Part shown: positions 9,801-63,385 of the stretch, in pieces
Position numbering within the stretch: the first letter of the stretch is position 1
Layout of the letters: every line of letters begins with the position of its first letter
DNA from: a virus
IMG/VR virus record: IMGVR_UViG_3300045988_037736
Coordinates: 32,001 to 96,000 of that record
DNA: 64,000 nucleotides
Strand: one strand, 5' to 3'
Program-made: the position numbers and the translations under genes
The notes under the pieces: generated by a model
Told to the model about the DNA's origin: nothing
Seen by the model: the letters and a program-made list of their open reading frames with translations, nothing else
The model's database searches: none

Positions 9801-10998
9801 GGAAGGATACTCCTTTTGCTGAAGCATTAAGAGTCTTTCCTCCCATAGCTACTTTTCCTAGCCAAGCAGCTCCTTTAGTAGCTGCATTAACAGCAGCAGA
9901 GCTACCAAATGAGAGGATAGTAGAGGCAGCAGTAAAACCATACTGACCAAATAACTCAAAGGGTGTATTAGCTGAAAATAAGGAGTTCTGTTGCTCAACA
10001 GTATTAAAGATAGGATTGTCAGATAGTCCAAGACTCTCCAATCTCTCTTGCTCCGATGGTGACCATGAGTTAGTAGTTGCAACCCTGTCACCATATCTAG
10101 TTACAGCATTATCAATTACATTCTCAAGCCATGACTCATCATCTTCAAGACCTATACCTACAGCACCACCTATCATACCAGCAGCTCTGATAATCATACC
10201 AGCAGCACTGTCAATAAACTGAGCACCAGAGTTCCATGTTTTTTCAAGGAATGACTGATTGTTTGCTACTGTATTTTGATAGTAGTTACCAAGAGCCTTA
10301 GCAGCAAACTGACCTCCACCAACTGCTTCATTAGCAAGATAGGAGGCAAGAACCTGCTTTCTCTCCTCTGTAGACATTGATAGCTTATCTGTACCATTAT
10401 ACTCCTTATACATTGGAGAAATTTCTCCTGAGAAAGAATCAAGGTCAGTCAGGTACCTTTCTAGAGTCTCTGAGTCTAGGGCATTAAGCTGGTTATAGTA
10501 GGTATCATATAGTTGGGCAGACTTATTCTCAAGATAGGAAAAAGCCTGCTCCCTCATAGTATCTCCTCCTGTTAACTTAGCATCAATTAGGGCATACTTG
10601 TAATCAGGGTCAAACAGGAACTTCCACACAGAAGTGGAAGATTCCTGTAAATCACTCCTAGCATCAAGGTCAGATGCTAGAGCCTTCTTTGCTACATAGT
10701 CATCTCTCTGTCCTTTCGTAAGAGAGCTTCTGCTGTTGAATATCTGTTGGTCTTCTTCACTGTTACTATTGCCAAATATATCCATGAATACTGTGTTCCT
10801 AAAGTAGTTATCTTTTTGAACATCATCCATTCCTTGAATTTCTCTAGCATACTGCTTCTCCCATTCAGCCCTATCATCTGCACTAAGACCGGTCAGTCCC
10901 GAAAAGTAGGACTGATTATACCTTTGCTGTAGAGTCTGTTGTGACTTCTCTGAAGGAAGAGCAAACATTCCAGTGGGACCACCCGCTAATATAGGCAT
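3826..10998 (-). CDS. giant 2390-aa multidomain virion/ejected-type protein. Gly/Ala-rich N-terminal part, Pro/Thr/Val-rich linkers, C-terminal RecB-family PD-(D/E)xK-like motif set (D..FDMK..QLSLY).
   Basis: Single 7.2-kb ORF, TAA stop, no in-frame TAG. Motifs LDILAYDG / IFDMK / QLSLY lie near the C-terminus (nt ~4440-4560). Confidence 0.75.
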   Translation of the reverse strand: MPILAGGPTGMFALPSEKSQQTLQQRYNQSYFSGLTGLSADDRAEWEKQYAREIQGMDDVQKDNYFRNTVFMDIFGNSNSEEDQQIFNSRSSLTKGQRDDYVAKKALASDLDARSDLQESSTSVWKFLFDPDYKYALIDAKLTGGDTMREQAFSYLENKSAQLYDTYYNQLNALDSETLERYLTDLDSFSGEISPMYKEYNGTDKLSMSTEERKQVLASYLANEAVGGGQFAAKALGNYYQNTVANNQSFLEKTWNSGAQFIDSAAGMIIRAAGMIGGAVGIGLEDDESWLENVIDNAVTRYGDRVATTNSWSPSEQERLESLGLSDNPIFNTVEQQNSLFSANTPFELFGQYGFTAASTILSFGSSAAVNAATKGAAWLGKVAMGGKTLNASAKGVSFLRGVTKARNIGNLLVPGAVGTVEGGMNAAMTKQETLKGLETDIQNRYASKVDADIDAYAREHNMSQEQADYLKSNPEARAQFEGKYAADMAADRQAAEESANTAMYYDFWTNSVINGMVNATWQAGQQAPRVQNALRKIGIGGNNSVGDAVNIARQGDRWVAQARQMTKGQAFKGRLKEALGEGFEEYTQDISSAFGQAYAEDKMQQYIDNKYGANPGATAAQNDFWQSFAAGLQAAGNTAISFDAIKSGVYGALSTAMGGPNIGMKQGANGNMTAKGITWRSAFTPLFSNTEINAVNQQREKMAEHFNTYFSDESMQRALFNAGGTAEWLTQYQEAIESNDEKAARDARVGQMFSNIITLNDLEGTGYHEAVMANLQARANFDAQNLQDPESEESKAVEQFMASAQNRTQNISREEALQTIQRNANEMLDMMDMVSKETRSIEKIFGENIDQDVKASMVFNKVVIEDYKKRIGQLDEEIAEVTTELNSQEDATPSSALNNKGRRLIARFGSLSNAVTELSKLEEQKSELDQVVREMKREQKRGSLSQEDQATLAMAESYARELDRNIKSIKSAQEDYSFNAQHQAVERDGVTYNDPVDTTVLSASEIMSLSASDRAFMLDPKHRDRYSQEQQAEIDKVNSVGTSIHQDFTKKIADRNRVERDYRAAMNSQFALMYSPKALNRYVAKVKHQAQQRMLQKKNEELLDIATNGNYWQFSERLDDIYNRGDEAEIAAVEDMLTNQSYKGKWYDFPQEARDMFERYSRENERKSEIYDWAERNGVFEENDPRADVFAATLDYLSNSGVDVTDVEAGAEMLLDYDRDAAEDGEVNLYFEQHLARANEKAPIEGQITGYNSIEETIQTYRDIMGRYNSEREQRDLNNEEVVPTETPVEASEPAAIPDPTPSGPTIFDIGGSTPEAGHITEDGERVGSPTVSDMVEQGEVETPVTPVETPIEVTQPSSVIDTFIENSNEEVGKAAEVALRVAENAPSFTAEAKEQVKALIEGLSANSFDTVQEFADAITARANAMDGRAEANETQVPDLLRHVVAKVLKSQSDEKKIDTPSPRVDAPVSPFFDKRRRAIRTQARKMNYQFIVGNPESGMITSMNIAYLRQSHPDTPIVRYYDKYGIEDALRDGVLTRDSEVMFITDDALTDEVKSNMESKGFGYTENDLPIIAVVESSNGPITINVDGQDKHFQPVSVMSATGVEYSPGSKNMAPIRSLAVGNTGTSLVKNTDGSPVVTKLLKPIVAATSFDSSRRGQENNNVLDVGQNDLSEQDKGTPMGYQKAKRNFLKRLGIVKVGDNRKKIVFHQDKLNGGTQPIDIFIAPVQRTQNKEGQTVSQVRDSVDGLINFNSRTRRAAKTIANFIETFSDEEMSFTRDSSGQVVPLGDTEKLLNSMANTIENQISNYMNVPSKSGWHYSVTATDQVADGKKVYSIDLVNDDGSITPIHLTTVYQGMTEEASKAAQHEFLKNLLTDESGEVRMANERDSFIKWQVPFSDVERAAEGDNAAKKNLSDIYDDGFLEVSPTNVSFNYIIQGIALQSPFKSDGSPVYTTVANPTNASPASPVNEPVVVPNGQVVRGDTVIDSDTGTVVQGESAPAANPAAERAKEIVDRIVDDSKSITLADDGSGYVDSKGTRYARVTSIIAADEEAGERFDPNSPWVTPSTNIGTGIDEFVRDFFAGVATDFSKYPNATPEALQKFAEQLTVLKNNLEVNGLTVVPRDVTVTGQVEVADSNGKVHTINVAGTLDILAYDGKGNFYIFDMKTNRSGIDQHKREKYARQLSLYKDFLERKYGVQVKALNIIPIGVSYPAPAGWRNGTADYSVSPEKDNQLLIDGREYTEANPVLQETIAVPYKPLRIVYDRLTDAEKAMVSGIEETLNEGTGVVEAPVEPVTPIEAQVADSVDMTVDPTLGIAVDMSIGEGLFEDDFTGGMGWDLGGRLTPIPHHLQWNNLTQEQRDGLAAKHIDEVSWSQMEDQEMEQELGCL

Positions 10999-11021
10999 AA
11001 TTTATAAATATTTTTAAGTTA

Positions 11022-12413: not shown

Positions 12414-15104
12414 TTAGAATGTTAAACCTCTTTTCTTTCTTTTAATCTTACCACCATAAGCTTCCTTTTGAACAGGAGCATAAACTCCATGTCTACTAGC
12501 CCATGTTCTCCATTTTCTATCAACTTTCTCCCTACCAATATCTCCAAGAGAACTGAAGATGTTTGATAAGTTATCAGAGATAGCTTGTTCTCTTGCAAGT
12601 CTAGCTCTTGACCTTATATCAGCAGCAGCCATTGTACCTCTTAATGAGAAGTCTCTAGCTCTTGATAATGCTTCTTGGTTGGCTATATCAGCTTGCAGGA
12701 ATCCTTGGGAGTTCTGAATATTTGTACCTCTATTGAACTCTTCAACTTGATTCCTTTGAGCAAGGTTATATTCTTCAGCCTGTCTTGCTAAAGCACCAAG
12801 CTGGTTTAGATAGTTATTATCAGCAGCAAGAATGCCTGCCATTGCAGTGGCTCTGTTACCTCCTGAAGTATTTAGTAGAGACCTTCTTGAGGCACCTGCC
12901 TCTGCATTCATCTTGTTAATGTAGTAATCCCTATCAAATGGTCTATAAGTTAGGTAGTTACCAATAGGTCTATACCTTACAGGTCTGTAAGCACCTTTAC
13001 CACTGCTTGCTTCAAGTATGGCTGAGACATCACCATCATCAGGCTTTGTAAACAATGAAGTTCCAAGACCTATGGCAGAGCCTAAGATAGGCATATACCT
13101 CATCCAATTATCATAGTTGGGGTATTCACCTCCATTATCAGTAAGGTCAGGGGCTTTCTCATCAGTAGGAGCTACAGCAGGTCTTTCCTTATAGAATAGG
13201 TCTGTATAATCTGTATCTCCTTCACTACTTGTTCCTGTCCTTACATACTGATATGTTCCAGTTGTTGGGTCATAGTCAGGAATAAGTAGGTCTTCCAAAG
13301 GAGTGCCACTAGCATCTGTTCTTCCTGTAAGATACATCCTCTTACCAGTCTTTCTTGGAGCTACTGGAACTGGACTACCTGCAAGGTCTATTCCTGCGTG
13401 CATACCACCCCAACTCTTGTCAGCTGTCCTTGAAGAGAAGATGTCTTTGGTAAGACCCTCTAGAGTAAGAGGCACATATCCTCTTCTTCCTTCATTATAC
13501 CTATTAACTGATTCAACATACCTAGGTAGCCATTGATTTACCTCATCACTTCCCCAGTTATTGATGACATAGTTCCTTCTTGTCATAAATGGAGAGTTAT
13601 CTCCATACATAATATCCCAGTCAATAGAGCCATTTGACTTATAGGGATTGAATCCTTCTTGACCAAAAGTAAGACCTGGAGTAGAGTTATTATAATTGAG
13701 AGTCTGCATCCAGCTACCTGTTTCATACAGGTGACCTCCTCTCGCAAACTTTCTCTCTTCTTTTCTTTCCCTTACCTGCTCCTGTACTTCCATCAACTTA
13801 GACATGCTGTCTATCATTCCTGCCCTACTTATAGGGTCATTAGGCCTCTCTTCAGATTCTTTGCTCATTTGAATAGCAGCATCTGCAAAGGTGAGAGGTT
13901 TTGTTCCTCTTAGTTTATATTTCTTTCTTACTGCTTTTGGAACTCTTAGTCTGTTACTAAATACATAATCATTGAAGATAACTTCTCCCTCTTCTACAAG
14001 GTTAGGAATGCCTTCAGCATCCATTCCCATAGGAACTCCTTCATTAGGGTTTTCTTCATGTGTACCTCCATTACCCACAAGAACAAGTCCTGTATCAAAG
14101 TCAGCTCCATGTGTCATAAGGTCTCCTCCAAAGGCATGATGCCACTTAGCAGCGTTCTAAGCAAATATAGCTCTCTTTCTAGTTAAAGGATTTTTACTAT
14201 GGGTTAATTCCTCTGTAGTCTTTCCTGTTCTCTTCTTAGTAGCATTGAACTTACCTCTATTCTCTGGGTTAATATGTATTCCTCCACCTTCTGCAAAGTA
14301 CAATGGACCTCCATATGAGGCTATGTTTCTAAGTATATCCCTCTTCCTAGTCTATCCTATATTATACTGTGCATTTTCTAAAGAAGAACTAACATATTGC
14401 CTAGCAGTATCAGCTCTTTTGCTCATATCCTAATATAAATCATCTATATCATGACTAAATGCACCCTAACTGCCTAAATCATCATGATTAAAGTATCCAA
14501 CTGTTGGAGCAGTAGCCATCTCCTAAGCTAAAGCATCATAATCAGTAGCACTTGATTTAAACTGTCCAGCCTGGGATATTTGATTATTTAAAGAACTTAT
14601 AAGTTTTTCATTTCTTTCAGAACCAAATAAGTTATTAGTAACTCCTCCAAGTAGCTAACTTGCTCCCATTACTATACCCCCAACCATTGGGTTTACAGAC
14701 ATTAAGGCTCCACCTACAGTTGAGCCTATACTACTAATTCCATTTCCTACTGCACTAGACCTTTTTCCTCCAATTACATTACCTACAATTGAACCAGTTA
14801 AGGCACTTCCTAGTCCTATACCCTGTTTGCCCAATTGAGTAAGTCCTAAGGATGGATTAGTAGTTCCAGATGGTGGAAGAGGAAGGGTTGCTGAAGCAGC
14901 AGTTGGTTGAGTAGTTTTAGTAAGAGCTTGCAGCCCTGTTGATATAGCTTCTCCAGGCATAGTTTCTCTAATACCAGGCATAGAAAAAGCATCATCCATA
15001 CCTGGTATTCCAGCTAGATAATCAGGAGTACCTCCCCATGCAAAATAATTATTCCTCCCAAAAAGGAGTTTATTTGTTCTTTTTTTAATAAGTTTCTTTG
15101 CCAT
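12414..15104 (-). CDS. hypothetical protein ~896 aa, read through 6 in-frame TAG codons (all in the N-terminal third). C-terminal 567 aa is the TAG-free ORF 12414-14117.
   Basis: ORFs 14655-15104 and 12414-14117 are in the same frame. The intervening 540 nt translate cleanly if TAG is sense (TAGs at 14655, 14523, 14466, 14430, 14352, 14157). TAA stop at 12414. Confidence 0.55.
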
Positions 15105-27777: not shown

Positions 27778-29292
27778 TTAGCCCTGTAGTATAGCAGGGA
27801 TAAGTGACATTGTTCTAGTTGGGTCAAGAACACAAATACCAAGAGTAGCCATCCTATGGAAGGTAGCTGAATCTTCATCATATGACATGAATTGATTACC
27901 AAGCTGACCTGTGAAAGGATTTCTCAATCCCCATTGATAACCTCTGAACTCCTCTTGTCCCTTAATCTTACACTTGAAGATATTGGGCTGGTCCATAGTA
28001 CCAATGTACATGATGTCATACCTGTAAGAGAAGGCAGGTCCACCATCAGGGTGTTGTACCTTGTTTCTTATTGGGTCATCATAGTATGGGTCAACATCAA
28101 GCTTCACTCTTACACCATTAGGTGCCCTGTACTCTACAAACTGGAAGCCAGCTGCAAGAGCATTAGTATGAAGATTGCTTTGTGTCTTCTCAACAACATT
28201 CAGAGCATCACCATTAAGTGTGAACTGAGTCCATCCACTTACAGTCTGAAGTACAGCCTTATGGAATTGTATAGCACCTCTTTCACCTGTCTTAATGACG
28301 AAGTACCTATCACCAAAGTCAAGCTTGGATGCAGACAGTTCATATAGGGCATCTTCAAGAAGTTTCAGGCTGAACTTGTTGTAGTACTGAGTATTAGCTA
28401 CCTCCATCTGTTCAAACAGACCAGCACCCATCTTAATAACTTCACCTGACTTACCAAAGTTCAGATACTCTCCATTGTTGTTTCTGTTGCTTCTACCAAA
28501 GGCAAGAATGTTATTCTTGTATTCAGAGAATGTCTGTTCAACTTCCCAGTCAACATAGTGCATCCACATGTTAACTACAGACTTAGTGTAACCTGTAGGA
28601 GTTTCCTTTGTTACAGGAATACCACATGCAAGTTTCTTGTTGAGCATATTGCCAGGCACCTTATGTTGGATTCTGATGGTAGACCATTCATTTCTCATAG
28701 ATACAGGAGAAGTGAATCTAACATCACCAACTTTCCTTGAAAGTGCTCTTTCTACAGGAGCATATTCATAGCTGAATCTTTCTCCTGGAAGGAGTCTTTC
28801 AGCAGGAATACCTTGGGTAATACCACCCATTAGCTCTACCTTGTAAACTGCATTAGTACCTTCCATTCTCGGATTACCAAGAATCCTCATGGGATATACT
28901 TCATTCAGATTACCTACAATTACTTCACCATCAGCAAACCAGTCCTCAGGGAAGACAAGCTCAAACACAGCTGTACCAACACCTACATTGGCAGTAGTTG
29001 CTGCGGTTACTACATTGCCATTCTCATCTCTTGCCTCAAGCAGAGGAATATTCCTTCTGGTAGAGCCAATTACATCCCAGTAATATTCTGAGTCATCTTC
29101 AAACTCTTTTGTAGGGAACTGGCTTAGGAAGGTATCAAGAGTCTTACCTCTGTACCAAGCTAATAGCTGTACCATTAGGTTAGTTGCCTTCTGTGGAGCA
29201 AGCTGGAAGATTTGACCAAGGTGGTTGTCCTTTGTCAGACCTTTCCAGTGAGAAAAGCCAATCATTTGGAACTTATTCAGTTTTCCAGCCAT
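27778..29292 (-). CDS. major capsid protein candidate (504 aa, HK97-fold-like by size and position)
   Basis: Follows the acidic scaffold-like gene and is followed by a terminator. No TAG. The assignment is positional and compositional inference. Confidence 0.5.
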   Translation of the reverse strand: MAGKLNKFQMIGFSHWKGLTKDNHLGQIFQLAPQKATNLMVQLLAWYRGKTLDTFLSQFPTKEFEDDSEYYWDVIGSTRRNIPLLEARDENGNVVTAATTANVGVGTAVFELVFPEDWFADGEVIVGNLNEVYPMRILGNPRMEGTNAVYKVELMGGITQGIPAERLLPGERFSYEYAPVERALSRKVGDVRFTSPVSMRNEWSTIRIQHKVPGNMLNKKLACGIPVTKETPTGYTKSVVNMWMHYVDWEVEQTFSEYKNNILAFGRSNRNNNGEYLNFGKSGEVIKMGAGLFEQMEVANTQYYNKFSLKLLEDALYELSASKLDFGDRYFVIKTGERGAIQFHKAVLQTVSGWTQFTLNGDALNVVEKTQSNLHTNALAAGFQFVEYRAPNGVRVKLDVDPYYDDPIRNKVQHPDGGPAFSYRYDIMYIGTMDQPNIFKCKIKGQEEFRGYQWGLRNPFTGQLGNQFMSYDEDSATFHRMATLGICVLDPTRTMSLIPAILQG

Positions 29293-29320
29293 AAATAAAT
29301 TGATTATTGGTTATATTTTA

Positions 29321-30475
29321 TTAAGCATCAATGGTCCAGCCCTTACCTATGAAGGATTCTGAATCAACTCCACTTGCATAGTTAAGATTACCATCTGAGG
29401 TTCTAGCAGTATTGTTTAGAGTATTTTCCAGTTCTCTGAACCCTCTCTTTACTTCTTTTCTTACTTTACCTTTTACAAGTCCATCAAGATTCTTGAAGCC
29501 ATCTGTAAGTGTGAATATAAGACCAAGGTTCTTTAAGAACTCTGTCCTATGTTCCATTTCATATCTCTAAATGGCAGTAAGCATTTCTCCTGTCTCAGGG
29601 TCTTTATATACAGGCTTGGCAAGATTGTCATATATTCTTTGTCTTGTTGCCTTGTCAACTTCTACATCACCAAAGACTTTCTTCTCAGTGAGAATAGATG
29701 TTCTCAGCTTCTCAGCCTGTTCCTTCCTCTTTGCTACTTCTGCCTCTTCCTCTTTCTTGGCATCTTCAATTACTTCCTCATATTTGGACTTGAAGTATTC
29801 CTTGTTGCTTTTCAAAGCCTCTCTTGCATCATCTACATCAGTACCTCCATTAAGGGATTTCTGAACTTCTCTTGAAGCTCTTTCCTTACTGTAACCCCTA
29901 TTAATGAAGTCCTGATATATTAGCTGTTTCCTCAGCTTCTCTCCTTCATCAGTCTCAGCTGCAATAGAGTCATCCTTGATACTGTCAAGATAGTTGATGG
30001 CACCTTCATACTGCCTGATAGTATCAGGTTCCACTCCAACATTGAGAGCCTCATCAATCCTCTTCTGTCTTTCATCAAGACCAGCTTTAATCTGTTGCTC
30101 TACAAGCTCTCTTAAGTCTTCAGGAGTTTCTACTTTAGAAATGGCTTCTTCATCAAGGTCTGGGAAGATACCTTCCTCTGCAAAGGCTTTGGCAATGGAA
30201 GAGTAAATTTTGGGAGAAGTACTGCCTTTGTCAGGGTCAGTATCTTCCTTTTCCTCTGTATCTCCACTACCTACGCTCTCTGGTTTGTCTGTAAACAAGG
30301 AGTCTACATTAACCTCAGTAGTTTCTTTTTCTTTCTTTTCTTTGCCCTCTACGAGCTCATCTTCTTTTTCTTTACCTGTATCATCAGGTGCAGGCTCCTG
30401 TGATGTGTCATCATCTATGAACAGGTTCTCTACCTCAGAGCCTGTCAGAATGTTATCTAGTGATAGTTCTTCCAT
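29321..30475 (-). CDS. acidic coiled-coil scaffold-like protein ~384 aa (ORFs 29567-30475 + 29321-29557 joined through one TAG)
   Basis: ORF 29567-30475 ends in TAG (CTA at 29567-29569). The next ORF is in the same frame. D/E/K-rich sequence. Confidence 0.5.
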
Positions 30476-41773: not shown

Positions 41774-44700
41774 TTACTGTATATACCCTTGGGAGTAATT
41801 CCTTTGGAAGAAAGAATCATTGCCTAAGTATGAACTACTGACTTCCTCCTGTGCCTTAGCATTAAGATTATCTCTATACAGTATAATCTTCTCTTGTCTA
41901 TACAGCATAACCATACCTAATGCCCTGATTCTATCCACATTAAGTTCAGGAGTGTAGGAAATTAACTCTTCAAGTAATGCTCTATTTCTTAGAGAATAGA
42001 GCCTTGGAATATTGACCTCTTTCTCTTCTCCATCCTCCTTTATTATAGTTGGAACTGGCTGAAGTAGCCAATCCCTTATCAGGTTATTAGCATAATTGTT
42101 GATAGTAGCATTCGCATTGATACCTTTTGCATTTGAGCCAAAGGCAGAATACTTAATCATCTGTTTGTCTCTTAAATATTCAGGAGTATCTGCCAGTAGG
42201 TGTGTGCATTCCATTCTGCTAAAGTAACCATACAGGCCCTTCTTATTGGATTCATACATGCACTTGGCATTATAGAATAGACACAGCATTCTTACTATCT
42301 CAAAGTTATCATCTGCAAATGCCTGCCTACCAGTGTATTCTGCTACAATTCTGTCAGTAAACAGGTCAAGTACAAAGGTTGAAGAAAGAGAAGAAGACTC
42401 TGCCTAATCATTATCCACAGGGTCATGGCCTATAATATATCTCATATTGAAATCATCCCCATTTGCTTGTTTCTCAGGCATTTCAAATATCTCAATAGCA
42501 CCTACTGTTGAATTGTCAACTCCATACTTTCTGATAGGCACATCATTACCTATTCTAAACTCTACCTTATTACCACTTGCTAGGGCAAGATTACCTATGT
42601 AAACATCATCAAAAGCATGAGGGTCTGAGTCAAGTTGAGCCAATCTCTCAGTAAGAGCTACTGTAGGAAAGTAGGCAGCCTTCACTTTAATGATAGCTTC
42701 AGCTGGTGTAATTGGGTCCTCGGCAATAACTCTTAATACTGACTTAGGGTCAGCAGAATATTTAGCTTTGTGTCTTGCCAACAGAATTTCTATGAGAGCC
42801 TTTGTTACATCAGAAACACCATCCTTGTTGTAACATCCTGCCCTATTTACATAAGAAGGAAAGAAAAATCCAAAGGTAGGCTTTCCTTGCTTAGGTCTGT
42901 CATAGACATTCTCAATAGCCAGAATATTGTAACCATCTGGATTGTAAAGAAGAGTTTTTGCCGAACTGAAGTCTGACTCATCCTCAGCAGCAGTATTATG
43001 AGTTACTATATTGTTAGCCAAGTAGGTATGACTTAATCCAGCAGTTAAATTATATACTTCTTGTTCACCTATCTCTTCTACAGAAGTAACTTTGTGAACT
43101 ATTATATCCTCTGGATATTTTTGAGCCTTCATACTCGGATTGCTATTATAATAGTCCATTATCCTTTTAAGGCAATCTCTCTTGTGCGGAACAAGAAGTT
43201 GAAGCACACCACACACTCTTGTACAATTATGTCTCCCTGATATAGATAGAGTAAACCAAGAATTTCTATCTTTCCTATCAGAACATAGTTTTGGCTTAGT
43301 CTCCACAATAGTGCCAACTACTCCAAATTTTCTCCACAGTACTTTAACTTGCTCTAATATTTTCCTATTGCTTTGAGTTAAAGATATATATCCGTCTCTA
43401 TTAAAGCTTATACTACCATCAGTATCATATAATCCAGATAGCAATAGTGAGGTATCATCTCTTGTAAGAGTCTAATAGTTGATAGGAAGCCTTTTATTGG
43501 ATTTTACTTGCCCCTAAATACCTAATTCTCTTAATTTATTACAAATACCTTTAATTCTTATATCCTCGTATATTTTTCCTTTCTTGGTAATATGAGTAGC
43601 AGATAATGACCATTCATATCTATGCTTTACATAGTCTAAAAGCTCTTTATCCTCAGAACTATACTTGGGGGATTGCCTTAATCCATAAGAACCATCTCCA
43701 ATAAGCATACCTACTAATCTAGGGTCAAACATGGTATCTGTCCCAAATATTGGAACTTCCCTACTCTCTATAATTCTATCTCCTACACTTAAAGCTCCAG
43801 CATTTTTGAATACTTCTTCATAATACCTTATAGACCCATTATGATTCATTCTTTGTTTCTGAGTAAGAATTGGATGGTCTGTAGAGCATCTAAGTTCATT
43901 TCCATTACTCAGTTTAATAAGTACACATGGTTTTTTAGCAATACTTATAGAACTCATTATAGGTTCTTTGGTAATCCCTCTTGTGAGGTGAATATTAGGT
44001 TCAGTACCTGACTCAAAGGAGTCTGTAAATCCTATGATACCATCCTCTCTCTTTAAATCCTCTATATTGATATTCCTGCCATCTAATGTCCATACCTTAG
44101 TACCAGCACATACACAACCTACAAGGTACATTGTAGCAAATGTATAGTCACCATCTTCTACAGACTTTCTTGTGATGTCATACAGGGATAGAAGTCCCTT
44201 AAATGAACCCATCTCCTCGAATAGAATCCAACCTCTCTTACCTCTTAACTTCTCTGAGTCATCCTTTGCAGAAACAGCAAGCACCTGATTCAATGACCCA
44301 CTTTCAATACCAAACTCATCCTTGTAGCCCATCTGCCATGCCATCTCATTAGGAGAGTTCTTTAACATGAGCCTAGGGAATGGAGTATTTTTGAAGGAGA
44401 AGTTAATTCCAGGTTTGAACTTAGAGAGTGTGCCATCCTTACTGTCACTAAGATACTCTTTCTGATAAGCAGTAAGTACAGTAATAACCCTCCTCTTTAC
44501 TTCAGTAGATTCACCAAGTATAAGGTTGTGAGACATTATACTTGCAAGACTATATGACTTTGCACAATTATGAGTAGTTATAAAGTCCCCTACTAAATAA
44601 CAGGAGTCTTTAGAGTCTACAGTAACACATTTACAAGGAGATACCCCAGCATACTCAATATTGACTATGGCAGTTTTGTTCTTTCTTGATAAAGCATTGG

Positions 44701-46180
44701 TGCTACTATAATGTACACCACTCTTCTTCCTTGGCAAATTAAACAGTTCTTCTCCACCATATACTGCTATTTCATAGCAATCAGAGCATTGTATGTAACC
44801 ATTAAAAGCTTTATACCTTGCTCTGCTCTTAGATATCTTGGTGTTATATCCAAGACTTCTAGCTATAAAATCCACATCTTCGATTAGTCTTTTTGAAATA
44901 GAATTTAGTGTAGGTACTCCTCCATGTATAGAGCCATCTGTATCAAATAGCCCTTTTAGGACTTTTAATCTTACATCCCTTGAGTTGTACTTGTATTCTT
45001 CAGGAATAAACTTATCTATAGATTTTGCATTATTCAGTCCATAAGACTGCAGGATACTATTCCAATTAGGAATATGTACTCTATAAGAATATTTACCTGC
45101 CCACTTAGTATATTTGTAGGGAATATAGTTCTTTTCTATATCAAAGTCCTTATCTATTTGGGTAAAATAGCAAGAACCATGCCTAAAGCACCCATCCCCT
45201 AATAGAAGTCCAAATGTATAAGGTTCTACCAGAGTATCTTTATATGGCAAGTTTATTCCTTCATTCCCAGGAATGAAACAGTTATATTCAATACCAGAAG
45301 GAATCCTATAAGAGGGAGTTCTATTAGTCTTGTAATTAGACAATAGCCAAGCTGTATTGACTGTCATATTCTTCCCCTTCCTCTCTATATTCCATAAGTG
45401 GTCATCAGTAGCAAACACCGTTCTGCCATCCCTAAGAGTTATCTTGTAGTAAGGAGAGACTTGGTCGTAAGGTATATCTATAACAGTACAGACAGAATTA
45501 TCTGTAGCATATAATTTATCTCCTATCTTAATATCCTTCCACAGCTTCCATCCTTCTGGGGTAAACACCTTCTGGAAATAGGGGTGAGCACCCCTCTTTG
45601 CAAGTTCTATGGCATGTTTACCAGCCTCTCTTGCTTGATGAAGATAGTGAAATCTCCAATAGATTCCTTCAAAGAAGAAGGGGAAAGACTCAACTCTGAC
45701 AGCTTTCCTTGTGCCAGAAATTACCTTATTTACCATCATGGGACAGTAATTAAGAAACCAATAAAGGAATCCTGTGACCCATTCTCCATCACTCTCCCTT
45801 ACATAACCCTCTCTACATCTCCTCATCTCCTCATCCCAGTGCTTTCTGTATTCACTGTTAGGATTAGAATTTGGTCTTAGAAAAGTATAGCAGCCATGCT
45901 TCATAAAGTGTAAGGCTGGTTGTCTGAAATAATCCATATCCTCAAGTATATGAGGATTGGCAAGGTCTACTATAATCCTTCCTTGCTCATCTCTTGGTCT
46001 ATCCTTAGCATATACCCTATTAGGAGAGATAAGTCTTTTTATAAGTTCTACACTATTTATAGTGTCCAATAACTCCTCCTTGACCTCCTCAGGTAAAGAC
46101 CCAAGGAGTTCATCAGTCAAGGGGGTCTGGTACTCATTCATTTCAATAGCCGAGGTATTCTCCATAGATAATATCTTCAA
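41774..46180 (-). CDS. terL: terminase large subunit interrupted by two inteins, each carrying a LAGLIDADG homing endonuclease. 3 in-frame TAG (two inside intein 2, one in the C-terminal extein).
   Basis: Three same-frame ORFs (43514-46180, 42404-43444, 41774-42289) are separated only by CTA (=TAG). Intein 1 runs ...AHPYFQKVFTPEGW...ATDDHLW...LLLGDGCF...LKGLFDTDGSI...VGDFITTHN|C. Intein 2 runs CVCAGTKVWTLDG...STDHPILT...LVGMLIGDGSY...LSGLYDTDGSI...NNIVTHN|T. C-terminal nuclease motif YIIGHDPVDND. Walker-B-like ILFEEMG. Confidence 0.65.
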
Positions 46181-46556
46181 GTATTGTTCTGTCTTTGTTG
46201 TTAAATGACTTGCCGTCTATAATAAGACTGAATAGTCCTGTAACAAATTCAGACTCTATATCCTTAATAAAACTTTCCTGTACATTAGGAGGAATGTTAC
46301 TTATATTGACCTGCTTGGTCAAAGTGAGAAGTCTATGCTTCGAGTTATTACCAACTACCCATAGTATATATTCATATCTCCTATATGACTTAAAGGTAGG
46401 ATGAGGTTCTATAACTCTCTGTAGAACAAGATGTTCTTGATTACTTGGAATAACCTGAAGGTCTCTCCTCTTATTGAATATATGCACATTAAGTGACTCA
46501 ATTACATCTTCAAGTGTCATATTACAAATCTTCATACATTGCTTTTTCCTGAGCAC
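46143..46556 (-). CDS. hypothetical protein 137 aa (possible small terminase by position)
   Basis: ORF directly upstream of terL. Function is positional guess only. Confidence 0.35.
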   Translation of the reverse strand: MLRKKQCMKICNMTLEDVIESLNVHIFNKRRDLQVIPSNQEHLVLQRVIEPHPTFKSYRRYEYILWVVGNNSKHRLLTLTKQVNISNIPPNVQESFIKDIESEFVTGLFSLIIDGKSFNNKDRTILEDIIYGEYLGY

Positions 46557-47064
46557 CTCTTACCTTATTGCTCTGAGCAATTTCCTTGGCAATAGCTGCT
46601 TCAGCTTCATTCAAATCTTTCACAAGAGTAGGAATCTGCTTGATAGTTGCAGTGATAGTATTGAGAGTATAGATAGGTTTACCCTTATCATCAAGGGCAC
46701 CAAGGTCTATTTCCCTCAATAGAGTCCTCAGCTTATCAACTGCCACTCTGGTATCTTCAAGAAGTAATGCAGATGCTGGCTTGAAAGTCTTATAGAACTC
46801 CATTGCCTCAAGTACAAGGTTATCAGGCTCCCAGTCATTAGGTAAGCCTTCACCTTCCTTAATAGAAGCCTTCCTACTTTCCTCATCTATAATGTACTGA
46901 TAGTCACTTCTTGGGTCAGCCATAAAATATATGTAGGAAATCTCGGCTATTGCTCTATTTTTGTTTGCAGACCTGTCCCTGTTCCATATCTTCTTAAAAG
47001 GAGTTAATGCTAAAGCTTCAGGAGATATGATTACCTTATAACCTTCAAATTTAAGTAGTTTCAT
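46522..47064 (-). CDS. hypothetical protein ~180 aa (internal start MKLLKFEG preferred over the tracked start at 47160)
   Basis: The tracked N-terminus overlaps the GIY-YIG gene by 110 nt. The internal ATG removes the overlap. Confidence 0.5.
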   Translation of the reverse strand: MKLLKFEGYKVIISPEALALTPFKKIWNRDRSANKNRAIAEISYIYFMADPRSDYQYIIDEESRKASIKEGEGLPNDWEPDNLVLEAMEFYKTFKPASALLLEDTRVAVDKLRTLLREIDLGALDDKGKPIYTLNTITATIKQIPTLVKDLNEAEAAIAKEIAQSNKVRGAQEKAMYEDL

Positions 47065-47716
47065 TTTTATATTTCCATTTATAACCTCCAGCTGATGGTC
47101 TTTTACCTCTAGCACATCTTGATATGTGAGTCTCCAAAACTCCAGTATCTCTAGCTGCATCAGCTATTGATGGGTATGTACAAATTATATTTCCTTCTTT
47201 ATCACATTTAACTATTTCAATTAAGTCATGATAACTGTGATTAAGTCTCATCTTAAGCTTAGCCTCTTCAGACTTAGGCTTTCCTTGTAAGGATAAACTT
47301 ATCTTTAATTTATGCTCTATTGTGAGAGGAACACCTTTGAATCTGGAACTTACTAAGAGCTTAACATGCTCAGGTATCTTTTTACCTTTGCCTTTAACAC
47401 TCATTTTTCTTCTAGTCTCTTCAGAATGCCTATATCCAAGAGACCCTTCCCCGCCATCAGTTATATTATAAGATATGCCTAGCTCCTTATATTCTTTAAT
47501 TAAGGTTATCTCTAACAGATTAGCTTCCTCTTTAGTTAGTCCTTCTTTTATTATATCATGCTTAAAGTTATCCCACCCATACTTTTCTATGGCTCTCTTA
47601 AAGATACCTGTTTTGTATCCTCTCCCCTCTTTCCATCTCTTTCCCACATTAAAAGAGGTCTGACCTATGTAGACCTTGCCATTAACTTTATTGGTGTGTT
47701 TATATACTGTGTACAT
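47051..47716 (-). CDS. GIY-YIG homing endonuclease (third copy)
   Basis: MYTVYKHTNKVNGKVYIGQT motif. Confidence 0.75.
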   Translation of the reverse strand: MYTVYKHTNKVNGKVYIGQTSFNVGKRWKEGRGYKTGIFKRAIEKYGWDNFKHDIIKEGLTKEEANLLEITLIKEYKELGISYNITDGGEGSLGYRHSEETRRKMSVKGKGKKIPEHVKLLVSSRFKGVPLTIEHKLKISLSLQGKPKSEEAKLKMRLNHSYHDLIEIVKCDKEGNIICTYPSIADAARDTGVLETHISRCARGKRPSAGGYKWKYKNETT

Positions 47717-47766
47717 ATCAAAAAAAAATAGCCTGTACAGAACTTAATCTATACAGGCTTAGATTA

Positions 47767-50313: not shown

Positions 50314-50385
50314 TTAAAGTTAGTCGCCCCACTCTGGCTCGAACAGAGACCAAAGGATTTAGAGTCCTCTGTGCTAACCATTACA
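50314..50385 (-). tRNA. amber suppressor tRNA-Sup (anticodon CTA), built on the tRNA-Gln scaffold
   Basis: TGCCTCA-TG-GTGT-AATGGTTA-GCAC-A-GAGGA-CTCTAAA-TCCTT-TGGT-CTCTG-TTCGAGC-CAGAG-TGGGGCG-A. Anticodon 34-36 = CTA with U33/A37. Positions 8-26 are 18/19 identical to tRNA-Gln(TTG) at 54395-54466. Confidence 0.75.
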
Positions 50386-50890
50386 CCATGAGGCAATATT
50401 TTATTAACAATGCAAAGGTATGAAAAATAATTTAAATTACCAAATAAATTGATAATAAATTTTTAATAAAAGTGTAAATAAAATGGAGATAATATAGCAT
50501 AAGCTACGGTCATATACCAAGATTGATTAGACTCCAGGTCTACACTAGCAGTTCTTTCTTTTTGAACACCAAGAGAATATAATAAATTGTGAGTTCTCCA
50601 TTCATTAAGTAAGCTAAACATAGTTCTGTTATTAATAGAACTGTATGGGTAAAATCTAGCTTTTAAATGAATGAGAAACTACTTCATATCAGATAATGAA
50701 GTGATTTTATAGGAATCATAAATAGCTATATTATTATCAGATATGTCTACTTGATATTTCTGTTTATTATACTAAACTGTGTATTTCATACTTTTACAAA
50801 TAGTAAAGGGGTTATGATAACATGAATTACGCCACCTGAATATTTACAGTAAAACTCAATGTTATATAAATACTTAATTTCTTATTTCAG

Positions 50891-51078: not shown

Positions 51079-51678
51079 TTAGAGAGAAGTATATTCTGCT
51101 TTAGCATCAAAACTTGGACATGCTTTATTTGCAAACTCCCTATGGCCATGTATTGTAGCATTAGGGTACTTTGCTTTAAGCTGTTTAAGAAGCTGTACTA
51201 GAGCAGCTTTTTGAGCTTCAGTTCTAGTATCTTTTGGAGTTTTTCCATCCTTGGCACATCCTCCGATATAGCATACTCCAATAGACATTGTATTGTGCCC
51301 AGTACAGTGTGCTCCAGATATAGCCTCTGGTCTACCAGCATGTATTGACCCATCTCTATAGATTACATAATGATAACCTATATCAGAGAAACCTCTTTGA
51401 AGGTGCCATTGCTTAATCTGCGCAGTAGTAAAGTCCTCACCTTCAGGAGTAGCAGAACAATGAACTATAATTTCCTTTATATTCCTCTTGTTCTGAGTTA
51501 CATTCAGCTTAGACCATGTGTTATTTCCCACTATGCCATCTACAACAAGACCATTAGCCTTCTGAAATTCTTTGACTGCTTCTTCTGTGAGAGGTCCAAA
51601 TATTCCATCATCTTTCAGATTAAGCTTCCTCTGAAGGAGCTTTACATTAGGACCTTTATCCCCTCTTTTTATTACCAT
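51079..51678 (-). CDS. endolysin: N-acetylmuramoyl-L-alanine amidase (Amidase_2/PGRP) with an N-terminal peptidoglycan-binding repeat
   Basis: GDKGPNVKLLQRKLNL..DGIFGPLTEEAV..ANGL is a PG_binding_1-like domain. HCSAT...AHCTGHN...IGVCYIG is the amidase core. It is embedded in the tRNA array. Confidence 0.7.
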   Translation of the reverse strand: MVIKRGDKGPNVKLLQRKLNLKDDGIFGPLTEEAVKEFQKANGLVVDGIVGNNTWSKLNVTQNKRNIKEIIVHCSATPEGEDFTTAQIKQWHLQRGFSDIGYHYVIYRDGSIHAGRPEAISGAHCTGHNTMSIGVCYIGGCAKDGKTPKDTRTEAQKAALVQLLKQLKAKYPNATIHGHREFANKACPSFDAKAEYTSL

Positions 51679-51701
51679 ATCTTTCTCTTTTTACTATGTA
51701 G

Positions 51702-52736: not shown

Positions 52737-53213
52737 TTATTTTCTTTTGTTTTTACCTGCGTATGTACTTGTCTGTGAATGACAGTTAGGGCATAAGAAT
52801 CTTAAATTCTCTAATCTATGGTCATTATTTATACCATTTATGTGGTCTAGATGTAGAGATAGTGGCTGACCATTCCACGAGGATATACCACATTTACTGC
52901 ATTCATATTTTAGCAACTTATTGTCTATAAGCCTTCTTTTAAGTGAAGCTATATTAGCATAGCTACTATTCTTTACTAGTATGTTCTCAATGGGATATAC
53001 TTGCGTTGGAGATTTTATGCTTACATCTCCAAAGTGAGATGTTGAACATCCTAGTTCTTGGATTCTTCTTTTCAAGACATCTTGTGAAGAATCCCCTTTA
53101 GTAGTTAGTCCTAATGCTCTCAGGGTATCAGAGTAACTATTAACTCTATTTATTAAATTTATAAACTCCTTATCAGAGATACTATATACTTTACTTGTAC
53201 CTTTTCTTCTCAT
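52737..53213 (-). CDS. HNH homing endonuclease
   Basis: C-terminal HLDHINGINNDHRLENLRFLCPNCHSQ motif. Paralog of the plus-strand HNH at 61700-62116. Confidence 0.8.
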   Translation of the reverse strand: MRRKGTSKVYSISDKEFINLINRVNSYSDTLRALGLTTKGDSSQDVLKRRIQELGCSTSHFGDVSIKSPTQVYPIENILVKNSSYANIASLKRRLIDNKLLKYECSKCGISSWNGQPLSLHLDHINGINNDHRLENLRFLCPNCHSQTSTYAGKNKRK

Positions 53214-53215
53214 AG

Positions 53216-53258
53216 TGGTAGGTAAAAGAATCGAACTTTTACTAGTACCATACCTACC
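53216..53258 (-). other. tRNA minihelix-like element (acceptor stem + T-arm only, 43 nt) directly upstream of the HNH gene
   Basis: GGTAGGT-ATGGTACTAGT-AAAAG-TTCGATT-CTTTT-ACCTACC-A. Perfect 7-bp acceptor and 5-bp T-stem with a canonical T-loop. No D-arm or anticodon arm. Confidence 0.45.
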
Positions 53259-53374
53259 AGTTGCTACCTTTAACCACCCCCTGTAGCTAGGTTGAGTTAT
53301 ACGACACTCAGAACAGAGCTAATATCTGAACATGTTACGTTGAGTCTTACACTAGTACTATTCTCTTTATTAGG

Positions 53375-61269: not shown

Positions 61270-61343
61270 GCCCTCATAGCTCATCAGGATAGAGCAACAG
61301 TTTCCTAAACTGTAGGTGGAAGGTTCGAGTCCTTCTGGGGGTA
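61270..61343 (+). tRNA. tRNA-Arg (CCT)
   Basis: GCCCTCA-TA-GCTC-ATCAGGATA-GAGC-A-ACAGT-TTCCTAA-ACTGT-AGGTG-GAAGG-TTCGAGT-CCTTC-TGGGGGT-A. Confidence 0.7.
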
Positions 61344-61368
61344 CTAAACAATTAAAGTAAGAAGGAAA

Positions 61369-61606: not shown

Positions 61607-61679
61607 CTCCCCTTAGTTCAGCGGATAGTAACAATGGTCTTCTAAACCATAAACCCCAGTTCGAGTCTGGGAGGGGAGA
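61607..61679 (+). tRNA. tRNA-Arg (TCT), second copy, on the plus strand
   Basis: Acceptor CTCCCCT/AGGGGAG. Anticodon arm ATGGT-CTTCTAA-ACCAT. T-arm CCCAG-TTCGAGT-CTGGG. Confidence 0.65.
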
Positions 61680-61699
61680 CTAAAATAAATTTATATATT

Positions 61700-62116
61700 A
61701 TGAATCCAAAGAGAAGAAGTAATTGTATCTGCGTAAATTGTGGTGATGAATTTTATCCAGCATATAATATGTCTGGAAAGTATTGTTCAAATAAATGCCA
61801 GATGGAATACCAATCCAAGCAAAAATACCAAAGATATTTACAACATCCCGAAGAGTATGAAGGACAGAGTAATATGTTTTGGGTAAAGAAACATATCCTA
61901 AAAGAACAAGAACATAAATGTTCTATTTGTGGATGTGTTGATACTTGGAATAATAAACCATTAGTATTTATACTTGACCACATTGATGGTCATGCTAACA
62001 ACAATATTAGAACTAATCTTAGACTTGTTTGCCCTAATTGTGACTCACAGTTAGACACATACAAAAGCAAGAATAAGAATAGTGATAGAATTTATCATCA
62101 TAATCATCACAGATAA
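61700..62116 (+). CDS. HNH homing endonuclease (paralog of 52737-53213)
   Basis: ILDHIDGHANNNIRTNLRLVCPNCDSQ with N-terminal CxxC pairs. Confidence 0.8.
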   Translation: MNPKRRSNCICVNCGDEFYPAYNMSGKYCSNKCQMEYQSKQKYQRYLQHPEEYEGQSNMFWVKKHILKEQEHKCSICGCVDTWNNKPLVFILDHIDGHANNNIRTNLRLVCPNCDSQLDTYKSKNKNSDRIYHHNHHR

Positions 62117-62117
62117 A

Positions 62118-62152
62118 TCTGTAGGTTGTGAGTTCGAGTCTCACTGGAATCA
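62118..62152 (+). other. 3' half of the split/disrupted tRNA (anticodon stem TCTGT, variable AGGTT, T-arm GTGAG-TTCGAGT-CTCAC, acceptor TGGAATC-A)
   Basis: Pairs with the 5' half at 61514-61552. Together they give a canonical 72-nt cloverleaf. Confidence 0.4.
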
Positions 62153-62297
62153 CTATTATTATTAGATGGTCATGACCTTCGACCGAAAAAAGGCAGTACC
62201 CTGCATACTCTAATGTAGGCTTCTGAATAGGATAAGTTGTGCCGAGTTGAAACCATAAAGAAGAGAAACTAAAGGTTGGACAAATGAATGAGGCTAA

Positions 62298-62332
62298 AAA
62301 CAAAACTTGCTTCGGAGTTTTGTTATAAATAC
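62298..62332 (+). terminator. terminator-like hairpin (ACAAAACT-tgcttcgg-AGTTTTGT) followed by a T-rich tract
   Basis: 8-bp inverted repeat followed by TATAAATACATTTTTG. Confidence 0.4.
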
Positions 62333-62353
62333 ATTTTTGAAGAAGCAACATCT

Positions 62354-62748
62354 GGGGCATATCTGGTATTTGATTGCAAATTATTAGGTAAGAGAACATG
62401 CAAGAGGGCATACTCTATAAATAGCAAGTAAACTTAGATGCAGAAGTTGATGAAACTCCTGTGAGAATGGCTGCATAAGCTTGACTCTGAGCAGCACTTG
62501 CTTGGAAACAGAAAGGTGCAAAAGTCTGAAAGGAAACTAAGACTGGCAGTCCGAGGTCCTAGTGCTTAATTAGCTCTGATATGCACGGAGAAGGTAAGCC
62601 AACTTTTTCTCTGTTTATGGACAATAAAACAGAGTGGTGGAAAGACAACTAGTCAACCCTGTGAAGAAAACACTCCAAATTGAAAAGCATGTACAATTCT
62701 CTTATGTGAAGTTTGTAAGACGAGGGTTCGACTCCCTCATGCTCCACT
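62354..62748 (+). ncRNA. ssrA: tmRNA (ssrA-like) candidate, ~395 nt, 3' CCA not encoded
   Basis: 5' GGGGCATATCTGGTATTTGATTGC and 3' GACGAGGGTTCGACTCCCTCATGCTCCA-A resemble tmRNA ends (GGGGCUGAUUCUGGAUUCGAC... / ...GGGUUCAACUCCCGCCAGCUCCA). Perfect 7-bp acceptor pairing between the two ends. Candidate tag frame ...AEVDETPVRMAA-stop at ~62435-62473. Confidence 0.55.
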
Positions 62749-62770
62749 AATTAAAACCCAAGATTAACAA

Positions 62771-63385
62771 ATGGAAACAAGAAATGTAACACTGACTCTT
62801 GACAAGGCTAAAGAGTTCTATAACAGTGGCAATGATGCTCTCAGAGAGGTAGCATTGCAAGCCTTCACAGAGAATGAACTCAAGGAAGTACACTACACTG
62901 ACATCAAGACCTTTGAGGATGCTTGCAAGGCTCTTGGTCTTAGTGAAGGCAATGTAAACTATGACATAGAGAGAATAGAAGAGGCAGAGTGTGGACTTGG
63001 CAAGCACCTTATAGCCATCTACAAACTGGACATCATCCGCAAGGCTCTTAATGGAGGTTGGGAGCCTAAACTCACCAAGGGAGACATCTACTATAGCTGG
63101 GTAAGGTTCTATCTTCCTAACAAGAAACCTTCTGACAAGAAGACCATTGCAACACTCAAAGCTGATGGTCAGAAGTACCTTCTGGTTTGCAGTTGTGGTG
63201 GCTACGGGTCCTGCGCTGGTCTCGGTTTCTTCGACTCTGGGTGTGGGTGTGGTAACTCGTATGCTTTTTTGGGCTTGCTCTGTTGCAAAAGCAGAGAGAT
63301 AGCTCAGTATATGAGTACACAGTTCGGTGAATACATCTTTGATGCTTGCTATGCTCAGCATCTAGGTGCATATGAGTGGGTATGA
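62771..63385 (+). CDS. hypothetical protein 204 aa with a Cys/Gly-rich C-terminus (CSCGGYGSCAGLGFFDSGCGCG...LLCC)
   Basis: Clean ORF, GC-richer, TGA stop. Confidence 0.55.
   Translation: METRNVTLTLDKAKEFYNSGNDALREVALQAFTENELKEVHYTDIKTFEDACKALGLSEGNVNYDIERIEEAECGLGKHLIAIYKLDIIRKALNGGWEPKLTKGDIYYSWVRFYLPNKKPSDKKTIATLKADGQKYLLVCSCGGYGSCAGLGFFDSGCGCGNSYAFLGLLCCKSREIAQYMSTQFGEYIFDACYAQHLGAYEWV

Follow-up and report, generated by a model that had tools for sequence, protein, structure and literature searches.

A 64,000-nucleotide stretch of viral DNA (positions 32,001 to 96,000 of IMG/VR record IMGVR_UViG_3300045988_037736; "the window" in what follows) almost certainly carries a transfer-messenger RNA (tmRNA) gene that is a true gene of the phage: full-length, of the standard one-piece kind, and located at 62354-62746 on the plus strand. 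The source is a gut crAss-like phage (Crassvirales) close to the Steigviridae: the major head protein, encoded at 27778-29310 on the minus strand (phrog_11589, expect value (E) 1.6e-117), shares 79% amino acid identity with that of cr85_1 and 78% with that of Bacteroides phage crAss001. The gene is genuine and probably functional. It is a new, rare subtype of a known kind, and through it a crAss-like phage with an altered genetic code gains a well-supported translation gene. An initial annotation, made from the sequence alone, had suggested a tmRNA-like gene at this place, and the covariance model, ARAGORN, the covariation and the tag reading frame all bear it out.

The Rfam covariance model for tmRNA, RF00023, which that annotation had named as a check, matches 62354-62749 over model positions 1-374 (that is, the whole model) at 70.2 bits where the gathering score is 47 (E 2.8e-25), which goes far beyond chance, and its alignment puts GCA, with high posterior probability, at the resume codon of the model. 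ARAGORN, run at 95% thresholds (-ps95), places a tmRNA at 62354-62747 and reports a consensus resume site, the tag AEVDETPVRMAA and a TAA stop. The gene order is standard, not permuted: the 5' strand of the acceptor stem lies 385 nucleotides (nt) upstream of the 3' strand, and the permuted tmRNA model, RF04321, gives 20.4 bits against its gathering score of 47. The segment opens at 62354 with GGGGCATATCTGGTATTTGATTGC / GGGGCATATCTGG... and closes with ...GACGAGGGTTCGACTCCCTCATGCTCCA at 62746. CTA comes next, directly behind the discriminator A73, so that the CCA end is not encoded. None of the 23 tRNA genes of the window encodes its CCA, and most of them resemble the tmRNA in their 3' context, having C and then T or A behind the discriminator.

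An identical copy of the gene is present in the contig L025 and an 82%-identical copy in L011; the latter is called by ARAGORN at default thresholds, with the tag AEVDYTPVRMAA. A scan of metagenome contigs for the window-type tag region (ACTCCTGTGAGNATGGCTGCNTAAGC) returned 0 matches, and L025 and L011 are therefore the only window-type relatives.

Structure and tag frame of the RNA

Conservation of the gene is concentrated in the tRNA-like domain and helix P2. The alignment on which the following account draws comprises 17 one-piece relatives, out of 29 viral contigs found by a 5' pattern (301-444 nt). Its structure was taken from RNAalifold and the named structure; column-wise enumeration of helices was dropped as too noisy, producing short, G·U-rich helices. 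The elements of the gene, with the frequency of pairing across the 17 sequences where it is given, are:

62354-62746, plus strand: standard one-piece tmRNA gene, 393 nt to discriminator A73 (RF00023; ARAGORN -ps95)
62354-62360, plus strand: acceptor stem, 5' strand GGGGCAU, pairing with 62739-62745 (AUGCUCC) and including G3·U70
62374-62401, plus strand: helix P2, 5' strand (tmRNA positions 21-48), pairing with 62687-62718
62403-62416, plus strand: short hairpin AGAG-GGCAUA-CUCU at the usual place of pseudoknot 1 (centroid fold)
62440-62478, plus strand: resume codon GCA (62440-62442), tag frame AEVDETPVRMAA and stop codon TAA (62476-62478) (ARAGORN; RF00023)
62470-62495, plus strand: helix-5-type hairpin GCUGC/GCAGC, 96.5% of cells paired
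62496-62517, plus strand: conserved hairpin ACUU..UUG-GAAA-CAG..AAGGU, 95.8% paired
62523-62560, plus strand: H-type pseudoknot, stem 1 at 62523-62527/62540-62544 and stem 2 at 62531-62534/62557-62560
62609-62634, plus strand: conserved hairpin CUCUGU/ACAGAG in the 3' pseudoknot region, 4 of 6 pairs compensatory, 90% paired
62687-62718, plus strand: helix P2, 3' strand (tmRNA positions 334-365) (alignment)
62722-62738, plus strand: T-arm GAGGG-UUCGACU-CCCUC, 100% paired, 2 of 5 pairs compensatory
62739-62746, plus strand: acceptor stem, 3' strand AUGCUCC, with the discriminator A (sequence; alignment)

Taken over the whole alignment, 94% of cells are paired, compared with 43-51% when the 3' partners are slid by 1-3 columns. 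Seventeen pairs have changed on both sides, against 5.1±1.8 in shuffled alignments, and the count was as high in none of 500 shuffles. The tRNA-like domain, P2, the resume codon, the tag frame, the stop-codon hairpin and at least one pseudoknot have been kept by compensatory substitutions.

The individual elements have been kept in different ways. All 7 base pairs of the acceptor stem, G3·U70 included, are invariant in 17 of 17 relatives, and so is A73; G3·U70 together with A73 constitutes the identity by which alanyl-tRNA synthetase (AlaRS) recognizes a tRNA-Ala-like acceptor. The 7/7 pairing of the two ends and the T-arm had both been noticed in the initial annotation, and both stand. The T-arm, with its GUUCGANUC-type loop, abuts the 3' strand of the acceptor; its stem GAGGG/CCCUC becomes AGGGG/CCCCU within the alignment and AAGGG/CCCUU or UUGGG/CCCAA in further relatives. 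P2, which closes the mRNA-like and pseudoknot domain, consists of 27 pairs (99-100% paired, 3 of them compensatory) and is recovered by minimum free energy and centroid folds alike. For stem 1 of the H-type pseudoknot the window has AGUCU/AGACU and the L065 group AGCCU/AGGCU. In stem 2 all 4 pairs have changed on both sides: the window has AGGA/UCCU, L011 has GUGG/CCAC and the L065 group has UGAAG/CUUUA. At the place of pseudoknot 1 the relatives, too, have hairpins of 4-5 bp (UGAUG/CAUCA or GUGUG/CAUAC). A further helix, 62562-62565/62583-62586 (GUGC/GCAC), was dropped, being paired in just 56% of cells across the relatives.

The tag frame that the initial annotation had put forward as a candidate, ending ...VRMAA-stop, is found at 62440-62478 and comprises 12 codons and a stop: GCA GAA GTT GAT GAA ACT CCT GTG AGA ATG GCT GCA TAA. 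Its final two Ala codons form part of the 5' strand of the helix-5-type stem, and the stop codon lies in the loop. Four codons differ between the window and L011, three of them synonymously (GAT/GAC, AGA/AGG, GCA/GCC). Across the family, the last four residues of a tag are mostly one basic, one hydrophobic and two small ones (mainly AA; also VA and SA), with few exceptions; ...YRVAA, ...VRMAA, ...YTRLVA and ...YTRIAA are examples. The first stop codon is TAA or TGA in 62 of 67 ARAGORN calls and TAG in three. Host-type tags, in contrast, end ...YALAA where the phage tag ends ...R-M-A-A.

(A possible tie between the Arg codon of the tag, AGA or AGG, and the adjoining tRNA-Arg genes was considered and rejected as nothing special, because the sampled ORFs of the phage use AGA and AGG almost exclusively and because permuted relatives have CGC or CGT at this place. 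AGA and AGG make up 317 of 318 Arg codons in seven sampled ORFs (open reading frames) of the window, for instance 3826-11001, 27778-29310 and 41774-46300, and three tRNA-Arg genes of the window serve these codons, two with anticodon TCT and one with CCT.)

Could the conservation be that of a protein encoded on the other strand? With TAG taken as a sense codon, the segment is overlapped by a minus-strand ORF of 244 codons (62019-62750), and this ORF does exist in the mechanical sense. Its standard-code part, 62034-62411 (125 amino acids), has no Pfam match, however; relatives carry indels of 1, 3 and 4 nt and blocks of ~50-90 nt inside the ORF, and the pattern of conservation is accounted for by the tmRNA model. 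The chance that a protein is what has been conserved here is negligible. The description of the segment as ORF-poor is only roughly right, with the qualification that mechanical minus-strand ORFs such as 62034-62411 overlap it.

A phage lineage of tmRNA genes

tmRNA genes are often sites of integration (PMC4383910), and the segment might in principle be a host ssrA gene beside an integrated phage or an attachment-site (attP) copy of the 3' end of ssrA. A 28-mer at the window gene's 3' end, covering the T-arm and the acceptor strand, occurs in 59 IMG/VR contigs, most of them of ~100 kb. Among 185,579 bacterial and archaeal species, each represented by one genome, it has a single match, in a 2.7-kb, coverage-1 contig of a Thauera assembly (L063; NZ_SSXV01000068.1, Thauera sp. 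2A1). Over 1.3 kb that contig has 99.5% identity with viral contigs of crAss size, and therefore is probably contamination in a public isolate assembly.

For comparison with host genes, at least 120 metagenome loci, many on contigs of 0.1-1.4 Mb, were collected with a 5' pattern of the Bacteroides thetaiotaomicron gene; we take them to be of Bacteroidota type by their tags, which match Bacteroides tags, rather than by any annotated record. ARAGORN finds 100 tmRNAs of 392-400 nt in this set, the commonest tags being GENNYALAA, GETNYALAA and GENNFALAA (GE[NT]N[YF]ALAA). The window RNA resembles them in architecture, in length (393 nt) and in not encoding a full CCA, and has the motifs GGUAAG..CAUGC and AAGCAUGUA in common with them; its T-arm, GACGAGGGTTCGACTCCCTC, is identical in some, which is the other point in favour of a host junction. 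The window RNA is only 53-58% identical to the Bacteroidota-type tmRNAs, the median among those being 74%; acceptor pairs 6-7 are swapped (CUG/CAG to CAU/AUG), the commonest host-type stems being GGGGCUG/CAGCUCC and GGGGUUG/CAGCUCC as opposed to GGGGCAU/AUGCUCC in the phage; the tag has 12 amino acids ending RMAA instead of 9 ending ALAA; and the place of pseudoknot 1 is reduced to a hairpin. The level of identity, the absence of the 28-mer from host genomes, the phage genes on both sides, and the differing stem and tag refute the host-junction and attachment-site readings, whose remaining likelihood is vanishingly small; the gene is, besides, full length and no mere 3' fragment. The initial annotation had called the gene phage-encoded while suggesting a search for an identical host ssrA: the search turned up only the contaminant contig, and the attribution to the phage holds, given phage genes on either side, synteny that is kept in contigs of crAss size, and the failure to find a host ssrA that matches. 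The window gene belongs to a long-diverged phage lineage of tmRNAs, probably passed down within these phages, whose origin is probably in the Bacteroidota.

Within this lineage the gene takes several forms. In about 50 of the 59 contigs with the 28-mer the 3' piece comes first and the 5' strand, GGGGCAU...GGTTTTGACAGC, follows 93-194 nt downstream, which is the circularly permuted order; these are about 50 of the loci L004-L062, and ARAGORN calls ~40 of them permuted ("tmRNA*"), with tags such as GNTSYVTDYTRLVA. Thus the exact 28-nt 3' piece of the window gene is common to ~50 crAss-size contigs whose order (RF04321; cr125_1) differs from the standard order of the window. Other forms, together with homologues in named phages, are:

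L004, 6108-6535: permuted tmRNA (RF04321, 43.4 bits; gathering score 47)
L002 (cr125_1, NC_055900), 3937-4386: permuted tmRNA (ARAGORN "tmRNA*")
L090, 13157 to ~13800: tmRNA split by a group I intron at 13464-13710 (RF00028, 88.3 bits)
L077, 9457-9550: mini-tmRNA of 91-94 nt with acceptor, start of P2 and T-arm and no tag frame (RF00023, 47.3 bits)
L003 (Kehishuvirus "tikkala", OQ198717; a cultured phage), 4001-4303: unannotated homologue
cr128_1 (NC_055885), 7824-8253: unannotated homologue

The intron of L090 lies inside the T-loop (GGGTT|TAAGTG...), which makes this an "intron form" of tmRNA in a phage. Standard, permuted and intron-split forms of tmRNA genes have been named (PMC11915505); here a single phage lineage, with a single acceptor stem, holds these three and a reduced form. 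Among the closest known tmRNAs, those of other crAss-like phages, is that of the complete genome of cr106_1 (tmRNA at 29657-29960; MT774378/NC_055871). Its acceptor stem, GGGGCAU/AUGCUCC, and P2 core, GGUAAGAGAACAUGC...GCAUGU, are as in the window; its tmRNA likewise follows tRNA-Arg genes in a plus-strand module of small ORFs, and the tag ends of the two fit R-[VM]-A-A. It differs in its length of 302 nt, ~90 nt of the pseudoknot region being absent, in its tag (DNTYRVAA, compared with AEVDETPVRMAA), and in that the phage is not TAG-recoded; BLAST aligns just ~20-40% of the window gene to it. The tikkala homologue is 97.6% identical to the cr106_1 tmRNA over 291 nt, with the 3' strands of T-stem and acceptor replaced (…GTCCAACCATCCCCA); Rfam has no match for it that reaches the gathering score, and it is overlain by two coding sequences annotated as "hypothetical protein". 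In cr106_1 and cr125_1 a "transfer-messenger RNA, SsrA" feature is already annotated in GenBank.

Close to permuted tmRNA genes, no more than a few kb away, there are ribozyme matches to RAGATH-9, to RAGATH-20 and, several times, to Hatchet, and in cr125_1 a RAGATH-9 match overlaps the opening 14 nt of the annotated tmRNA. Their positions are:

L002, 3782-3950 and 2423-2551: ribozyme matches (RAGATH-9, RAGATH-20 or Hatchet, here and in the next two lines)
L004, 4507-4681, 166-328, 444-571 and 3009-3143: ribozyme matches
L005, 13704-13805: ribozyme match

How does all this compare with what is known? We found no paper discussing the tmRNAs of crAss-like phages. A two-piece tmRNA has reportedly been described in a marine methylophage. 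Documented phage tmRNAs include those of the mycobacteriophage Bxz1 group and of Bacillus phage G, with only a tRNA-like domain in DS6A (PMC4131195); huge phages carry tmRNAs (PMC7162821), and a 2025 tmRNA database holds 79 unique phage sequences (PMC11915505). The Bxz1 group, phage G and the huge phages resemble the window phage in being lytic and in combining a large set of tRNAs with ssrA, presumably relying on host SmpB (PMC4131195, PMC7162821, PMC11915505); they differ in the phylum of their hosts and in their independent origin, and the window genome, at ~100 kb, is not that of a jumbo phage. L077 shows the same reduced design as DS6A, whereas the window gene keeps its complete mRNA-like domain. 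Phage tmRNAs having been known since the mycobacteriophages, and a few crAss genomes being annotated with one, the window gene by itself is unsurprising. A phage lineage with several forms of the gene, on the other hand, would be a compact natural system in which to study permutation and reduction of tmRNA and what a virus gains from ribosome rescue.

Probable ribosome rescue and the recoded TAG codon

The mechanism that the sequence suggests, a phage-encoded tmRNA carrying out ribosome rescue with host factors, is likely in its full form. The tmRNA would be transcribed together with its plus-strand neighbours, as is probable from its position, and would be excised by the host enzymes that process phage tRNAs (RNase P and 3' processing enzymes), the host CCA-adding enzyme completing its end. 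Host AlaRS would charge it with alanine by way of G3·U70 and A73, and host SmpB and EF-Tu would bind it. It would then enter ribosomes stalled on broken or stop-less mRNAs, add (A)AEVDETPVRMAA, terminate at TAA and release the ribosome. The likely benefit is that ribosome recycling would be maintained in infection, when mRNA decay and host shut-off raise stalling; ending in R-M-A-A instead of the host's A-L-A-A may alter recognition of the tagged products by proteases or adaptors. In Bacteroides fragilis, host SsrA is among the few RNAs enriched late in phage infection (PMC13139388), and the pathway is therefore in play in this host group.

Several observations weigh against this reading of the gene. 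1) At its default thresholds ARAGORN reports the window's 23 tRNAs and no tmRNA; the score is only slightly below threshold, since -ps95 calls the gene, and of the ARAGORN check that the initial annotation had proposed only the call at 95% thresholds is positive. 2) Posterior probabilities in the RF00023 alignment are low in the region of pseudoknots 2-4. 3) A second stem of pseudoknot 1 was sought in the window and its relatives: the window has only a 4-bp hairpin there, and the Rfam alignment is weak at this place. An inspection of pseudoknots and resume codon, also proposed at the outset, thus yields the resume codon GCA and one covarying H-type pseudoknot and fails to yield this stem. 4) The fold energy z-score of the window RNA is only -2.1. 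5) The 82% identity to L011 is no higher over the tmRNA than over its flanks. 6) The tagging function can evidently be lost, because L077 retains only the tRNA-like domain and the tikkala copy has a broken 3' half. 7) A tblastn search with E. coli SmpB, a weak test that covered only the 64-kb window, found nothing.

Is the gene, then, a decaying relic, captured from a host and no longer functional? The subthreshold ARAGORN score, the mere hairpin at the place of pseudoknot 1 and the disrupted T-arm and acceptor 3' strand of tikkala could all be put down to decay. Decay would not be expected to leave helices preserved by compensatory substitutions across lineages diverged by ~20% or more, an invariant G3·U70 and A73, or a syntenic position held in dozens of contigs; and although the gene is only 53-58% identical to host types, the Rfam model still matches it from end to end, and the tRNA-like domain and P2 are conserved. 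A relic is highly improbable.

The conservation of precisely these two parts, tRNA-like domain and P2, also invites the thought of a decoy: an RNA whose main business would be to soak up host SmpB or AlaRS and so block host trans-translation, its tagging ability being irrelevant. An inhibitor role of this sort has been proposed for the RNA of mycobacteriophage DS6A, which is only a tRNA-like domain (PMC4131195, PMC11915505), and the mini-tmRNA of L077 (91-94 nt, yet at 47.3 bits with RF00023) is of the same design. The window copy, however, retains the resume codon, the tag frame, the stop-codon hairpin and a covarying pseudoknot; changes in its tag frame are mostly synonymous, and the C-termini of tags are conserved family-wide. 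For the window gene a decoy function is very unlikely, and ribosome rescue by tagging is preferred.

Whether the tmRNA has anything to do with the genetic code of the phage is a separate question. That the phage is TAG-recoded, as the initial annotation had stated, is borne out: ORFs of at least 200 amino acids cover 53% of the window under the standard code and 78% with read-through of TAG (58% for TGA, 63% for TAA), the gene of a 1,605-amino acid virion structural protein (phrog_28748) contains 40 in-frame TAGs, and a suppressor tRNA is encoded:

50323-50395, minus strand: suppressor tRNA, anticodon CTA (ARAGORN)

The same annotation had linked the tmRNA to this recoding, pointing out that ribosomes stalled at unsuppressed TAGs would be its substrates. 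In a worked-out version, the tmRNA would mainly rescue ribosomes stalled at late-gene TAGs during the switch of TAG from stop to sense, for instance while release factor 1 (RF1) is blocked and suppressor tRNA is limiting. The recoding itself and the tRNA(CTA) fit such a role, as does a tag frame ending in TAA, which is a stop under both codes. The scheme is mechanistically possible, because unassigned UAG in RF1-deficient, recoded E. coli is resolved in part by tmRNA rescue (PMC6207430).

The distribution of the gene speaks against a specific link. The tmRNA of this lineage occupies the equivalent locus in relatives devoid of suppressor-type tRNAs: of the relatives that carry the tmRNA, 8 have 10 or more tRNAs in the available DNA, and in none of these 8 is there a CTA, TCA or TTA anticodon; tRNA arrays such as those of L088 and L090 keep the gene order of the window array. 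The complete genome of cr106_1 has its tmRNA at the equivalent place and no annotated suppressor tRNA, and reading through TAG adds just 3 points to its ORF coverage, less than TGA or TAA. The suppressor tRNA of the window is limited to its own lineage, occurring among viral contigs otherwise only in the closest relative, L025. Moreover, TAG terminates without stalling for as long as host RF1 is active, no RF1 inhibitor or release factor was found near the gene, and the tag frames of three relatives stop at TAG. With the tmRNA carried by relatives that have no suppressor tRNAs and by standard-code cr106_1, its link to recoding is not specific: the association is unsupported, mechanistically conceivable and not needed to explain the gene, and rescue at late-gene TAGs as its main task is unlikely.

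There is a related conjecture, decidedly unlikely as it stands: that the phage-specific tag (with its basic residue at -4, ...R-M-A-A as opposed to the host's ...A-L-A-A) and the placement of the gene in a standard-code module might together reflect the handling of TAG-stalled ribosomes in the code switch, or some other fate for tagged products. If it were true, the phage tmRNA would be part of a code-switching toolkit and not a spare host function.

There is also a practical consequence of the ARAGORN result. ARAGORN, the tmRNA caller in phage annotation pipelines such as Pharokka, misses the window subtype at default settings.

The neighbourhood of the gene

The tmRNA lies within a plus-strand, standard-code module of small ORFs that begins near 58.7 kb; the plus-strand ORFs of at least 150 codons beside it (61646-62116 and 62768-63385) have no in-frame TAG. 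Its immediate neighbours are:

61270-61344, plus strand: tRNA-Arg(CCT), first member of the block (ARAGORN)
61607-61680, plus strand: tRNA-Arg(TCT), second member of the block (ARAGORN)
61700-62116, plus strand: HNH endonuclease ORF between tRNA-Arg(TCT) and the tmRNA (phrog_10822, E 3.6e-21)
62771-63385, plus strand: downstream phage ORF, 25 nt past the tmRNA (phrog_11581)

The order tRNA-Arg(CCT), tRNA-Arg(TCT), tmRNA recurs in L011, L025, L065, L070, L085 and L088, and the tmRNAs of cr106_1 and L068 are preceded, at a distance of ~10 nt, by a tRNA gene. Neither smpB nor a release-factor gene was found among the neighbours of the tmRNA; in that no smpB or other translation factor gene was found nearby, the window tmRNA differs from other phage tmRNAs. 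A scan for promoters and terminators gave counts not above those of shuffled sequences and was uninformative, because the promoters of Bacteroides and crAss phages are not of the sigma-70 type.

Between the identical tmRNA of L025 and its downstream ORF there are ~355 nt more DNA (4747-5101), where the window has 22 nt (62748-62769). The tRNA-tmRNA region contains or adjoins three ORFs of homing-endonuclease type, with PHROG matches of the HNH and GIY-YIG-like kinds, at 61700-62116, 52737-53366 and 47051-47743. Overlapping the end of the first is a tRNA-like fragment, 62082-62158, with a perfect T-arm (GTGAG-TTCGAGT-CTCAC, at ~62127-62146) and complementary ends (AGTGAT/ATCACT); it gets no Rfam call at E up to 1 and, on that strand, no ARAGORN call at 70% thresholds, and may be a tRNA remnant or due to chance. 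Within the tRNA array, finally, is an amidase/endolysin gene (51079-51690, minus strand; phrog_822, E 4e-62).

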